Counted from the first letter of the stretch, positions 548 to 42,131 are shown. The stretch is 64,000 bases of DNA from Octopus vulgaris (GCA_951406725.2 OX597815.1:10602001-10666000); one strand, 5' to 3'. A program made the numbers and translations. The notes: generated by a model from the letters alone, not told the origin.

Positions 548-754
548 ATTACGGAGATGTACTCGCATAGCAAGTAATTTGATCTGAGATCGTGTGCTGA
601 AACGAAAACAATTGCAGCGTGGAAGGTGTTTATAAGCCATTTAAGAAACACACAAAAGCCGTTCGATTCACTTCAACATTTAAGTTTAATTTGTCAAAAT
701 ATTTTCGTCGCTAAAACTGCGACCTGTTCACTGACAAAGTCCGTGCTGCTGGTT
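548..754 (-). mobile_element. Short (TA)n-embedded hammerhead-bearing element (Penelope pLTR/retrozyme-like)
   Basis: About 205 bp between two (TA)n tracts; second copy at 10597-10800; contains a hammerhead fold at 690-738. Confidence 0.75.
690..738 (-). ncRNA. Minimal type-I hammerhead ribozyme, G3-C8 covariant core
   Basis: Minus strand: TTTGTCA-GTGAACA-G-GTCGC(AGTTTTA)GCGAC-GAA-AATATT-T-TGACAAA. 7-bp stem I, 5-bp stem II, palindromic stem III. Confidence 0.75.
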
Positions 755-804
755 TATATATATATATATATATATATATATATATATATATATATATATA
801 TATA

Positions 805-1031
805 TATTTCTTTACTACCCACAAGGGCTAAACACAGAGGGGACAAACAAGGAAAGACAAAGGGATTAAGTCAACTACATAGACCCCAGTGCGTAACTGG
901 TACTTAATTTATCGACCCCGAAAGGATGAAAGGCAAAGTCGACCTCGGCGGAATTTGAACTCGGAACGTAACGACAGACGAAATACGGCTACGAATTTCG
1001 CCCGGCGTGCTAACGTTTCTACCAGCTCGCC
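805..1031 (-). mobile_element. tRNA-derived SINE, family B
   Basis: Head GGCGAGCTGGTAGAAACGTTAGCACGCCGGGCG, GAGTTCAAATTCC B-box-like motif, tail GGGTAGTAAAGAAATA; many copies in window. Confidence 0.9.
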
Positions 1032-1057
1032 TATATATATATATATATATATACATA

Positions 1058-1578
1058 TATCTGGACGCTTAACCACAACACAAACCAAATATATCTAATA
1101 TTTAAAAGATTATAATAGAACACGTGCCATTCTATGTACAACATCGATGGCTTCAGAAAACGTGACCATTGCCTCCTACGACTTCAGTACTGAGCAGAAT
1201 GTTGGAATTCTTGAATCCTTTCAGACACTTCTGTTGGGTCTTATTGATGGATTGATGGATTTTCAAATATCAACTGGGTAAATAAATGTAGTTTCCGCTT
1301 AGTGGATTTTCAATGCCTTGAAAACTAAATCGAACAGGGAAAACAATTAAAACGAAAACATATTCACTCACCAACACTGAAAGTACATTAAAAATAAACA
1401 TTTTCGTTGTATTTGTATGCTATATACTTAGACACACACACACTTCTGCAGATATAGATATATCACTCACTTTAACTTGTAAACAGATGAATCTGCCACG
1501 TGTTTCTGCATGTGACAATTGTGTCAATGAATATGTATCACATTTTAACAGCTTCTGACAGTTAATCAAATCTTGAAG
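1058..1578. repeat. Diverged local direct duplication, copy 1 (copy 2 at 6553-7148)
   Basis: Colinear shared blocks such as ATCTGGACGC.TAACCACAACAC, GTACAACATC.ATGGCTTCAG, GGAATTCTTGAAT, ACTCACCAACACTGAAA, GACAATTGTGTCAATGAATATGTATCA. Confidence 0.85.
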
Positions 1579-1959
1579 TGATTACAAATAACTTTTGATT
1601 ATTTTTTTGTGTCTCCTTGATTCCCATATGTTGTTTGATCGTTTAAATATTCGGAAACATGATATTCGGAGTAAGAAGTCAAGACACTTCTACTTACAAC
1701 ATTAATAACAACGACATTAACTCATTGGAAGTGTCAATGTGTACATACTTTGTCTTGGTGTAAAAGATGAATTACATCAAGTATTCTGATCATGCTACAG
1801 ATTTTCTGGCCAGTTGCTTAACCTTAACCAGTTGAGCATATCCCTTGGTGGCTGATGATACGTGCATCTCTGATTATGAACAGGAGTATTAGGGGAACAT
1901 CATAGCAAATCTTGAGAGGAATTATACAAAGACAACAGTAACAATACTTTCAGTTTTTT

Positions 1960-2165
1960 GGCACAAAACCAGCACGTTTGGGGGAAAGAGTATAAATCAC
2001 ATACCCCCCCCCCCCACCAGGGATTAACTGGTATTTATTTTTTCGACCCCCAAAAGAATAAAAGTCAAAGTCGACTCCGACGGATTTTGAACTCAAAAAT
2101 GTAAATTGTACGAAATGCCACTAAACATTTCGTCCAGCGTGCTAACGATTCTGCCGGTTCCTCCT
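1960..2165 (-). mobile_element. Degenerate SINE, family B-related
   Basis: TCGACCCC..AAAG..AAAGTCGAC..TTTGAACTC..GCTAACGATTCTGCC core. Confidence 0.7.
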
Positions 2166-2369
2166 GCTCCTCCTGCTCCTCCTCTTACTACTACTACTAC
2201 TACTACTACTACTACTACTACTACTACTACTACTACTACTACTACTACCACTACTACTACTACTACTACTACTAATAATAATAATAATAAGTAATTCTTT
2301 TTTTTATAATAATTAATTCTTTTTTTTAATAATTCTTTTTTTTTAATAATTAATTCTTTTTTTAATGAT

Positions 2370-38420: not shown

Positions 38421-38439
38421 TATATATATACCTTTATTA

Positions 38440-38700
38440 AATCAATTTGAACAAAAGAATCAATCTAGTTTTCATTTTTCTTGAGCAGTTTAGGATCGTC
38501 TATGAACAAAAGATGCTTTAATTTCGATTGCTTGTTTTCTATCAATACCCAGCTCCTAGTTTTCGTTACGCCAACGTCATCAGTATCATGTATAATGCAA
38601 ACAAGGGCGACGTACAATCAACTTGAAAGATCTCTCGTTTTATCTATCTTCTCAAAGTACATCTCCTTACGTTATCAATTCAATTTTCCATAAGTGCATA
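38440..38700 (-). mobile_element. R4/Dong-type RT fragment
   Basis: IKREIFQ.D..SPL and HRLFIDDPKL correspond to GIFQGDSLSPL and HLLFMDDLKL. Confidence 0.75.
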
Positions 38701-38703
38701 CTA

Positions 38704-39690
38704 CAGGAATCGAGAGGTATTTGAGGACATATTTAGTAATTTAATAAAATAACTTTAATTTAGCAAAAACCAAATATATTTTAATGAAAATTTGTGCATG
38801 TGTTCTCAATGCGAGGCTGAAATTATTGACATACCTGAACTAAATGGTCTTTATTCATTTCGGACATCACCTGGACAACAGCTATCTTCAGTGAAGCTAT
38901 GGCATTGAGAGGATGTCGATTAGTCTCCGTTTCAAACGTAGTAATTCCAAAAATTCAAATCTGACGAGTTTGGAGGCCACAAGTCTGGTGTTACATATTC
39001 ATAAAAATTGTCTGATATCCATTTTGGGTTACGTGGGTTTTGTAAGGTTTTATTTAAGGTGCTGAGTCTTATTGAAATATGTATGGCCTTCTACTGAATA
39101 CTTCATCCATCCAGTGCCTATTAATTGTCTCCAGCACCTCAACGTATCCATTCTAAGAATTCTATAACCCTTTCAGAAGATGAAAGATGACGACTTTCAT
39201 AACTCACCACCCGCAAGCCATCATGGATGCTGGCAACTCTGGAGACATCAGAAAAATCTGTACATAACCATTTGTAGTTTCACCTCTTAGACTTCTAGTC
39301 TTGGTCGAAGTGCTTTTCATCAAACAAGAATCAAAGCATGCCATGGCCTTGAGGGTTTTTTATCTTGTTAAGTAACTACTTGGCATAGATCAAAGTTTTC
39401 ATGTGTCCCTTGCAGACAAAGAACAATGATCAAATGTCCTCGTGCACCACAGTTCTGATAATCTATTCCGACACCTGAAGTTCTTTGGCGATAGTTGTCA
39501 TTGATTTTATTTGGATTACCATCGATAAGGTTTTGAACCCATTAAACGAATTCTGGTGTCTTTATTGAATTCGAACATTTAGAACGTTTTTCTTAGAAAC
39601 AATTGAAGCATCATCGGCAGAGGATTCCGCTTCAATCCGATCTTCGTGTACCGAAGATTATGCAACATTTAGAAAGTTAGCAATTTCTAA
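38704..39690 (-). pseudogene. DD37D/maT-type transposase relic
   Basis: SDNFYEYVTPDLWPPNSSDLN..NYY...ETNRHP..SLKIAVVQVMSEMNKDHL. Confidence 0.75.
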
Positions 39691-41133
39691 ATCGACTTAC
39701 ACCCTTCCACAAACTTGCTGGCCTTGTGCCAAAATTTGAAACCAATACTCATGCCAAACCCTTTTCGTTCATTTTTGTATATTGTACTCAATCATCTTCA
39801 TTAATTCTTAAATGTATGCAAATCTTTGTTATCTAGTTCTCTTAGAAGTGTTTCTAATTGTCTAACATCTGCAGCGTACAAGTTACCCGCATACAATTTA
39901 TTGTTAATTGTCAGGATTTTAGTTGCGGATAAAGGTGTCTGCTGAAAACAGTCCTCTTCTAATATGTGTCTGTATTTAGTGCTGAAGACACAGTTGTTCC
40001 CACATGGGCAATCCAACATTCTTTTTATACATTCTTTTCCTCGCAAAATATCTCACGTTTTCTGTGGGCCCTGTATTCGTTTCAATTTTGTTTCTATCAG
40101 ATTCTTTGTAAACTCCTGAGTTGGAGTCGAACTGTCTGAAATATTCAATGAAGTGATTATGTTTTTATTTTCTCTTACCAAAGACGAATTATACACCATT
40201 TAATGAGAAGCTTTTGTATTTAGGCATTTTTTTCATCAAATCATTAGTGATTCTTGATTTATTATGTTGTACATCTAAAATGTTTCTTTCTCTACTTGAT
40301 ATTGATTGCATTAAGAATTAAAAAACCCTTTCTTTATTTTCTATAGTTTAGTGTGATTTTATTTTCAGCGTCTTTTTTATGGGTTTTTCGTGTTCGCTTG
40401 TAAATACTTTTCAGGAAGTATCCATTTTCCTGTGTCACAATTGTGGCTGCTGCATAAATTTTTTAGTATTTCCCAGTGACATTAATGTTCGAATCTACTT
40501 CTAGTCTGTCTATGATGGGTCACTTTGTATGTGTGTGTGTATGTGAGCGCGCGTGCGTATGTATACGTTAGTGCGTGTGCACGCGCATATGTATAGCTAT
40601 GTATGTATGTACGTAAGTATATATATATATTCATATATATGTGTATACACACACATATATGTACATACTAACACAGACAGACCGACACAAACATATTTTA
40701 TACACACACACACACACACACACACACACACACACACACATATATATATATATACTTCATTATAGATATAGGGTGAAAAATTATTAATGTATAATTAATA
40801 AATTTCACCAAGTAGTTTCGGTATGGAAAAGAACTATATCCGGTAAAAACTTATACAAGACGTTATATATATATACAACACACACACACACACACACACA
40901 CACACACATAATATATATATATATATATATATATATATATATATATATATATATATGTTTGTCTATATATATGTATGTATATATATATATATATATGCAT
41001 ATATATATATATATATACAATTTAAAAATAGGATAAAATCATTAAAATAAATTATCAATTATTTAGCTTTAAAAACCTCATAAGGGATAAATTTATTAAT
41101 TATTCCCTTTAAATGTATTTATTTATTTTAAGG

Positions 41134-41940
41134 GGCGCAGGCGTGGCTGTGTTGTAAGTAGTTTGGTTCCCAACATGGATTCTGGTTCAGTCCCACTGCG
41201 TGGCACCTTGGGCAAGTGTCTTCTACTATAGCCTCGGGCCAACCAAAGCCTTGTCAGTGAATTTGATAGGCGAACACTGAAAAAAGCCTGTCGTATATAT
41301 AAATGTGTATATATTTATGTGTATGTGTCTGTGCTTGTCCCCCTCTATTGCTTGACAACCGATGCTGCTGTGTTTATGTCGCTAACTAAACCTTGCTATA
41401 TTTATGTCAGCGTAACTTAGTCGTTCGACAAAAAAAATCGATAGAGAAGTACTATGGGTCGATTTCTTCGACTAAAAACAGCTTAAGGTGGTGCTCTAAC
41501 ATGGCTGCAGTCAAATGACTGAAACAAGTACAAGAATAAAAGTATATATATATATATATATATATGTGTGTGTGTGTGTGTGTGCAGGAGTGGCTGTGAG
41601 GTAAGTAGCTTGCTTATCAACCACATGGTGTCTTCTATTATAGCCTCGGGCTGACCAAAGCCTTGTGAGTGGATTTGGTAGACAGAAACTGAAAGAAGCC
41701 CGTCGTATATATGTATATATATATATATGTATGTGTGTGTATATGTTTGTGTGTCTGTGTTTGTCCCCCCAACATCGCTTGACAACCGATGCTGGTGTGT
41801 TTACGTCCCCCGTAACTTAGCGGTTCGACAAAAGAGACCATTAGGATAAGTACTAGGCTTACAAAGAATAAGTCCTGAGGAAGATTTGCTCGACTAAAGG
41901 CGGTGCTCCAGCATGGCCGCACTGAAACAACCAAAAGAGT
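41134..41940 (+). mobile_element. Two tandem SINE family A copies
   Basis: 41134-41542 and 41583-41940. Confidence 0.88.
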
Positions 41941-42097
41941 ATATATATATACATACATATATATATATATACATATATATATATATATATATATATATAT
42001 ATATATATATATATATATATATATATGTATATATATATAGTAGTTGTAGTAAAATCGATAACAAGAGTTCAGTGAACTTGTAGCAATGTGTGGAAAA

Positions 42098-42131
42098 TCT
42101 AACGTTTCGGACAATGTCCTTCTCCAGGGAA
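42098..42131 (-). ncRNA. Degenerate hammerhead motif
   Basis: CTGGAGA-A-GGACA(T)TGTCC-GAA-ACGT-T next to (TA)n; stem I weak. Confidence 0.5.

Follow-up and report, generated by a model that had tools for sequence, protein, structure and literature searches.

The DNA analysed here is a 64,000-nt stretch of Octopus vulgaris (GCA_951406725.2, OX597815.1:10602001-10666000), referred to as the window in its whole length. An initial annotation had reported hammerhead-like folds at eight main places and two more decayed ones within it. We labelled the ten candidates U1 to U10 by window order (Table 1). Eight of them are real at the coordinates listed there and belong to families of hundreds to thousands of copies. 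As for the two decayed candidates, U9 stands as a decayed half motif, which retains CUGAUGA and has nine relatives that mostly show the canonical motif, decayed to varying degrees; U10 is unsupported, as its core is poor and the genome search returned a single match, itself. U1 to U8 all lie in (TA)n context and share the order core, stem II, GAAA, self-complementary stem III, NUH and stem I. Stems I and II and the palindromic stem III are present in the motifs, with a G10.1-C11.1 pair in seven of the eight (A-U in U6), an extra A ahead of G12 in U5, a central U.U expected in the stem III dimer of U5 and U6, and five distinct self-complementary stem III sequences when the PLE_C family described below is included. 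The earlier description of several (TA)n-adjacent families with Penelope-type minimal type-I motifs, whose stems differ and still pair, was therefore borne out. The canonical CUGANGA core is found in none of the eight window motifs. Some window copies are damaged: U2 carries U16.1C, U4 has C3 opposite A8, U5 and U7 have C3U, U8 has A6G, and U6 lacks the 5' strand of stem I at an inversion junction.

The window by itself is weak evidence. A strict hammerhead descriptor found no match in it; allowing at most one core mismatch gave two matches versus 0.27 in 15 shuffles, allowing at most two gave six versus 4.5, which is within chance, and a variant-core descriptor gave three versus 0.57, 4 of 200 shuffles doing equally well. 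Similar motif density in shuffled controls would, according to the initial annotation, count against the motifs; the excess holds at one mismatch and not at two. An Rfam scan of the window (112 matches at E<=1) returned microsatellite look-alikes and no hammerhead, and in single-sequence folding U1 alone stands out (z -2.7), the other nine ranging from -1.6 to +1.3. Therefore, the families decide whether the motifs are real. Searches of the 2.8-Gb genome with seven units, U3 not being searched separately, gave 1,667 candidates for U1, 3,606 for U2, 1,987 for U4, 840 for U5, 1,593 for U6, 2,661 for U7 and 304 for U8, of which 40 per unit were scored. When positions 3, 4, 6, 7 and 8 were left free, 175 matches were found in 298 fetched loci versus three in one shuffle, and 164 of the 175 contain a Watson-Crick 3:8 pair; these matches are copies of few families and not independent events.

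Longer copies lead from several of these units to protein-coding parents. U1 copies are 99% identical, and some reach 5' through a microsatellite-rich untranslated region (UTR); a search with this 5' extension recovered an open reading frame (ORF) with a reverse transcriptase (RT), a Cys linker and a GIY-YIG-like end. The parent, a Penelope-like element (PLE) that we call PLE_A, has an RT, CxxC and GIY-YIG ORF of ~1,000 codons and a ~1-kb 3' UTR, and in 18/20 longer U1 loci its ORF runs in the same direction as the motif and ends 0.9-1.7 kb before it. The complete arrangement is seen in L267 and L275. L267 runs from 3'-end sequence into a ~1,000-codon ORF interrupted by a single stop, then through the UTR to the motif and the element's 3' end; in both loci 3'-end sequence stands directly before the ORF, forming pseudo-long terminal repeats (pLTRs) by partial tandem arrangement. 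The RT and nuclease motifs of PLE_A align to the PLE protein P0004 at E 4e-6 and 3e-5, while a Pfam scan of PLE_A gave no match and a PDB sequence search with it nothing. Inverted, 5'-truncated and tail-less neighbours are also seen, with eight opposite-strand partner matches among 40 U1 places and further cases in L053, L054 and L068, and in the window an inverted truncated partner is present at U4 and U6. Besides, the window holds a second U1-family insertion at 10592-10800, a head-to-head pair between (TA)n runs in which both copies are truncated inside or just past the motif.

For U7, 9/27 copies share more than 1.5 kb of upstream sequence. The full parent, PLE_B, is seen in L296 as motif, ORF, 1.7-kb CA-rich UTR and motif, the two motifs being 4.5 kb apart, and ORF linkage was found in 6/12 loci, three within 3 kb and three at 3.7-5.8 kb. 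PLE_B matches P0004 at E 1e-69 (tblastn); its Pfam matches to RVT_1 (E 0.007) and GIY-YIG (E 0.0015) are both below the cut-off, and P0004 itself gives 7.6e-7 and 2.7e-5 for these domains. For U2, 7/30 loci obtained with an upstream-only query have a same-strand ORF no more than 3 kb upstream, and the RT of its parent is 64-73% identical to that of PLE_B. U3 is 79% identical to the PLE_B end and falls into the same group as U7 on a flank-only tree. Since the linkage loci were picked for long 5' extension, these fractions show linkage and not frequency. In U1, U2, U3 and U7 a distance of 110-170 nt separates the motif from the 3' end, and a Cx2-5CxxC-type linker is present in PLE_A, PLE_B and PLE_C. 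Neptune and Nematis are used here as presumptive labels, taken from linker motifs and not from a tree with named references. Sequence linkage thus identifies U1, U2 and U7 as 5'-truncated 3' ends of RT and GIY-YIG elements, and U3 as another by homology only. The proposed non-autonomy fails for the first three, which have their own ORF upstream in the selected loci, and for U3 by homology, as a subfamily of the U7 element. We also observed repeats of the (CA)n, (CATA)n or pyrimidine-rich type over 0.5-1.7 kb of the 3' UTR in PLE_A, PLE_B and the parent of U2 (L296:8200-9400, L371, L071); some of the microsatellites of this genome may therefore stem from these elements.

U4 and U5 follow another pattern. 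A same-strand repeat 250-400 nt away was found in 18/25 U5 and 9/25 U4 loci, L339 holding about five U5 units, while U1, U2, U6, U7 and U8 show such a retrozyme-type tandem in only 0-2 of 25-30 loci. No PLE protein was detected around U4 and U5 in 25 + 25 loci of 3.2 kb or in 2 + 2 loci of 8 kb. Copies of both are 75-89% identical and decaying, and natural units are more stably folded than their shuffled versions (z -2.6 and -4.7). U4 and U5 are likely retrozymes judging from these features, and it is for these two that the suggestion of non-autonomous families holds. In the 4 and 6 longer loci of U6 and U8, respectively, shared sequence extends over just ~380-400 nt, with no linked ORF and no tandem; we surmise that both are probably truncated PLE ends too.

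The initial annotation had further named an ORF relic at 14920-15321 as the trace of the mobilising Penelope enzyme. The relic does derive from a PLE, sharing 35% identity with an intact PLE protein (E 8e-16); Pfam gave nothing at cut-off. No sign marks it as the mobiliser: it lies on the opposite strand to U2 and U3 and faces away from them, it is old and broken, its nearest relatives (~70% identical) are broken as well, and it is unlinked, the sequence 3' of its relatives' ORFs matching none of the U4, U5, U6, U8 and U9 queries. U6 as a pLTR of the relic's family was ruled out, because the U6 copy in L190 entered (TA)n as an insertion of its own. The search with the relic also led to PLE_C, a young family whose motif is absent from the window, with 4,271-bp tandems (L201/L216 period 4,271) and many intact copies, in which a 430-codon upstream frame overlaps a 775-codon RT-nuclease frame, possibly by programmed frameshift. 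Its motif stands about 240 nt ahead of the first ATG and has the U4C core in 21/21 cases. U1 was rejected as a pLTR of this intact 775-codon family, which has its own, different motif, and the relationship between PLE_A and PLE_C is remote (E ~1e-5). For the protein of one of the elements, the closest named relative is an Octopus vulgaris protein with 57% identity.

Table 1. Hammerhead-bearing units and PLE sequences discussed in the text. Coordinates are window positions unless a locus is named; positions 3 and 17 refer to hammerhead numbering.
Feature	Extent	Strand	Motif	Position 3	Position 17	Remarks
U1	550..754	-	690-738	731	697	Last 205 nt of PLE_A; (TA)n on both sides; predicted cut after 697
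U2	15800..15979	+	15852-15886	15856	15882	3' end of a PLE, putatively Neptune-like; family core CUGUNGA (A6U)
U3	16275..16496	+	16368-16402	16372	16398	3' end of a U7-related subfamily, by homology; core CCGACGA (U4C)
U4	20864..21250	-	21046-21092	21086	21052	Part of ~340-nt head-to-tail unit; inverted truncated copy at 21124-21253; family U3-A8, about half U4C too
U5	21292..21554	-	21350-21395	21389	21356	Part of ~350-nt head-to-tail unit; family core CCGANGA (U4C)
U6	23228..23417	.	23258-23291 (-)	23291	23262	Head-to-head pair: (+) 3' end with tail 23290-23417 and inverted tail-less copy with the motif; family core CCGACGA
U7	24125..24351	+	24233-24267	24237	24263	3' end of PLE_B, putatively Neptune-like; family core CCGACGA
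U8	42040..42210	-	42098-42131	42127	42101	Old family end; relatives mostly CUGAAGA
U9	28830..28860	-				5' half of canonical motif, old family; GAAA half gone
U10	29765-29810					Candidate without relatives in the genome search
PLE ORF fragment	14902..15342	-				RT thumb to linker; 5 stops in 147 codons; old family
PLE_C	L201:2420-6720; G000:C1:27838500-27856000	- (L201)				

The window contains further repeats in addition to these features. Another (TA)n-nested element is present as two opposite-orientation copies flanking U6 (22795-23191 and 23730-24115), each containing a ~100-bp repeat. Units of 174-209 bp form tandem arrays, with at most seven units, at 7361-7746, 8315-9175, 30954-32246, 37599-38220 and 49407-49785; we take the units to resemble copies of short interspersed nuclear elements. 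Open frames at 2384-2935, 48302-48622, 50054-50443 and 63112-63441 presumably represent C-terminal RT fragments of the long interspersed nuclear element type.

The families differ from the canonical hammerhead in a patterned way. Family-majority cores have G3-C8 in U1, A6U in U2, U4C in U3, U5, U6 and U7, and U3-A8 in U4; the canonical core was found only in U8 and U9 relatives, and no family majority departs from GAAA and NUH. The possibility that family consensuses would lack conserved core nucleotides, raised initially, is therefore half true: the majority cores are off canon, yet patterned. In U1 the core is GUGAACA. G3-C8 is present in 25/25 near copies, and a core-free search (2,596 matches, control 15) shows it in 80 of the first 100; older relatives, to ~73% identity, retain C8 alongside either G3 or A3 and differ in their loops and at N7. 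The U4 family has U3 in 49/52, A8 in 46/52 and U4C in 24/52 copies. C4 is present in 12/15 readable U5 copies (10/25 being unreadable), with N7 in all four states, and CCGACGA in 17/25 readable U6 and 27/29 U7 copies, while U8 is canonical in 7/19 readable copies and decayed in the rest. Taken together, U4C occurs in five lineages (U3/U7, U4, U5, U6 and PLE_C), and three Watson-Crick 3:8 pairs, G3-C8, U3-A8 and C3-G8, are used family-wide. A second independent G3-C8 family was not seen among the first 100 of 3,931 pattern matches (control 2,206). An old family with related stem II (L478-L487) shows U3.G8, U3-A8 and C3-G8 cores and possibly marks a natural path between 3:8 pairs; it was considered as a U1 homologue, and homology was not demonstrated.

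Genome-wide, we counted exact matches to one motif shape, a four-pair stem II with an ACGU stem III, and obtained 23,651 A6U, 11,140 U4C and 7,835 canonical motifs (controls 9, 3 and 7). The same shape with a free core gave 49,059 matches (control 2,005), and the first 100 of these, taken from one chromosome arm and read by eye, comprise 57 A6U, 18 U4C, 14 canonical and 11 other cores. Since U4C creates a CpG, part of the canonical set may have arisen from U4C by decay. The flank-only tree (131 rows) places 19 U4C copies in a supported group (97/99) amid canonical relatives; inside its A6U group it also has three canonical copies that carry the A6U family's stem II. This tree gives no direction of core change, as its root was set arbitrarily and many of the U4C rows had been picked for their likeness to the window copy.

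We were curious to know whether the A6U core is under constraint. With the stems anchored and the core free, 22,034 matches were obtained (control 0), and the first 100 were counted by eye. C3, U4, G5, U6, G8, A9, A13, A14, A15.1 and U16.1 are 94-100% fixed, G12, 15.2 and 16.2 change in 8-13%, mostly as CpG-type changes, N7 is U in 40, A in 22, C in 21 and G in 17, and N17 is A in 79, U in 20 and G in one. The N7 states cluster on the flank-only tree. Among 84 non-CpG flank columns, 22 carry a second allele at >=15% in 29 of 30 copies of a positional sample, one copy with a short flank being excluded. Because this share of flank columns varies at the subfamily level, the invariance of the ten core positions has a P of about 0.05, or ~0.008 when six stem II positions are included. 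It is suggestive, at modest strength, of continuing constraint that the free positions 7 and 17 alone vary among A6U subfamilies.

Scattered single minimal hammerhead ribozymes (HHRs) were interpreted as probable truncated PLEs by Cervera and de la Peña (2014; PMC4209133), and the octopus motifs resemble theirs in the short stem I, the G10.1-C11.1 pair, the extra nucleotide after A9 and the palindromic stem III, as well as in the thousands of scattered single motifs, the opposite-strand pairs and the U3-A8 variant, found there in Schistosoma. The 56 representative motifs in Fig. S3 of that paper have CUGANGA, U3-A8 or U3.G8 only; G3-C8, U4C and A6U are absent from the set, but its descriptor is unable to find these. 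In contrast, variants outnumber the canonical core here for the motif shape counted. A C-terminal GIY-YIG and a Cys-rich linker between RT and nuclease are shared with the endonuclease-containing (EN+) Neptune and Nematis PLEs (Craig et al., 2021; PMC8557442), as are partial-tandem pLTRs, the inverted truncated copy, the optional tail and the (TA)n target. U4 and U5 are like the animal non-LTR (long terminal repeat) retrozymes (PMC7229834; bioRxiv 10.64898/2026.07.22.740005), with which they share head-to-tail units, here of ~340-350 nt, one type-I motif in each, no ORF and PLE-style inverted copies; mussel retrozymes measure 350-390 bp (Cervera and de la Peña, 2020, PMC7229834; Li, Clavereau and Pollet, 2026). 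Unlike these, their cores are U3-A8 (with U4C in part) and U4C, not canonical.

Natural deviations from the canonical core have been described as rare single cases. In passages of Perreault et al. (2011; PMC3088659), U3-A8 is natural, A6C occurs in a phage with a k below 0.1 per min, and U4C occurs in a viroid with low activity in vitro that is enough in vivo; A6U is not among them, and the variants in the octopus are family-wide. G3-C8 appears only as an engineered rescue in passages of PMC11167929, PMC8495972 and PMC3884650, and the C3G/G8C hammerhead is partly active (PMC11167929). Passages of PMC13725137, PMC10085705, PMC6155905, PMC6765202 and PMC6962438 contain nothing on these core variants. 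Overall, our literature search, in which variant terms are brittle and subscription papers lie mostly outside, found no report of natural G3-C8, A6U or PLE-wide U4C. A large set of PLE-associated hammerhead variants was reportedly compiled by Lünse and co-workers in 2017 and lies outside this comparison. Thus PLE minimal HHRs, truncated solo motifs, U3-A8 and pLTR-derived retrozymes are already published; the element types are known and the finding is otherwise largely ordinary, the family-wide variant cores being its new part. These cores would be expected to slow self-cutting.

The eight motifs are probably hammerhead-shaped terminal repeats of several (TA)n-inserted PLE families, and we think it likely that they comprise three truncated ORF-bearing elements, a fourth by homology, two likely retrozymes, and U6 and U8, which stay unassigned. 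The Anolis PLE protein nicks AT-rich DNA, mostly uses uncleaved RNA and starts reverse transcription inside the RNA at two sites, which explains the tail (Frangieh, 2024; PMC11167929), and the window anatomy is consistent with this PLE in its (TA)n targets, 5' truncation and inverted tail-less partners. Early stops of reverse transcription would yield short stubs, and the window stubs would be aborted insertions that are probably inert. The ORF-less U4 and U5 units may borrow a PLE enzyme in trans, copied from multimeric or circular RNA. Across the families, two motifs could dimerise through the self-complementary stem III, the altered cores may cut slowly or only with protein help, and master elements might keep a weak, dimer- or protein-dependent ribozyme for which speed is not needed. 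Several points weigh against this reading as a whole: motif enrichment in the window is weak, no parents of U6 and U8 were found in the longer loci examined, the lack of an ORF in U4 and U5 was judged from 25 short and two long loci each, the constraint test is modest (one flank, an arbitrary 15% threshold and 29 copies), and the case is built on sequence comparison. Moreover, changes at A6 and U4 lower activity in vitro (PMC3088659), so some of the cores may be dead.

How the altered cores came to prevail can be explained in different ways. We speculate, tentatively, that PLEs in this genome were repeatedly selected for detuned hammerheads, at least six lineages having fixed G3-C8, U3-A8, U4C and A6U changes with the remainder of the active site retained; most RNA would then be left uncut for reverse transcription, with cutting slow or protein-aided. 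The A6U, U4C and perhaps G3-C8 cores could instead be dead ribozymes hitchhiking with successful masters, cleavage being dispensable for retrotransposition. HHR mutants of the Anolis PLE leave in vitro insertion unaffected and no reads end at the cut site (PMC11167929), Naiad PLEs thrive without canonical HHRs (PMC8557442), 8/9 Xenopus retrozyme dimers were uncleaved (bioRxiv 10.64898/2026.07.22.740005), and our conservation test reaches just P ~0.05. We nevertheless find hitchhiking rather unlikely, as the changes are non-random, with position 3:8 paired in three ways, stem III self-complementary and U4C recurrent, as G3-C8 is still found in copies of ~27% divergence whose loops and N7 differ, and as the A6U family varies at known free positions only.

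Two other explanations appear weaker still. The fold might be kept for a non-catalytic job, such as RNA dimerisation or binding of the PLE protein near the internal RT start, while the core letters drift; stems and palindromes are indeed kept while catalytic-core letters change, the motif keeps its distance to the 3' end in U1, U2, U3 and U7, and the Anolis HHR cleaves only with protein present (PMC11167929). This is improbable, given that every family majority retains the catalytically important G5, A9, G12, A13, A14 and NUH, and that N17 is almost never G in the A6U family. Least credible, and in our view very improbable, is that all units are short non-autonomous families mobilised by the Penelope family of the relic. 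U4 and U5 would fit, the best U1 copies often begin near one point, and U6 and U8 lack parents in the longer loci; however, the extension of U1, U2 and U7 into their own ORFs refutes it for these three, and the state, strand and isolation of the relic speak against its having been the source.

In PLEs the hammerhead cuts poorly alone, is assisted by protein and is dispensable for insertion in vitro. The octopus genome offers a matched natural series of canonical, U4C and A6U sister subfamilies with common flanks, which, together with a young G3-C8 family with a near-intact ORF, makes the role of the hammerhead in PLEs directly testable. Searches that require CUGANGA recover only about 14 in 100 motifs of the counted shape here. 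If selection for detuned hammerheads did take place, no working core of this shape would be commoner here than A6U, and most hammerheads in genomes of this kind would escape censuses that rely on descriptors.

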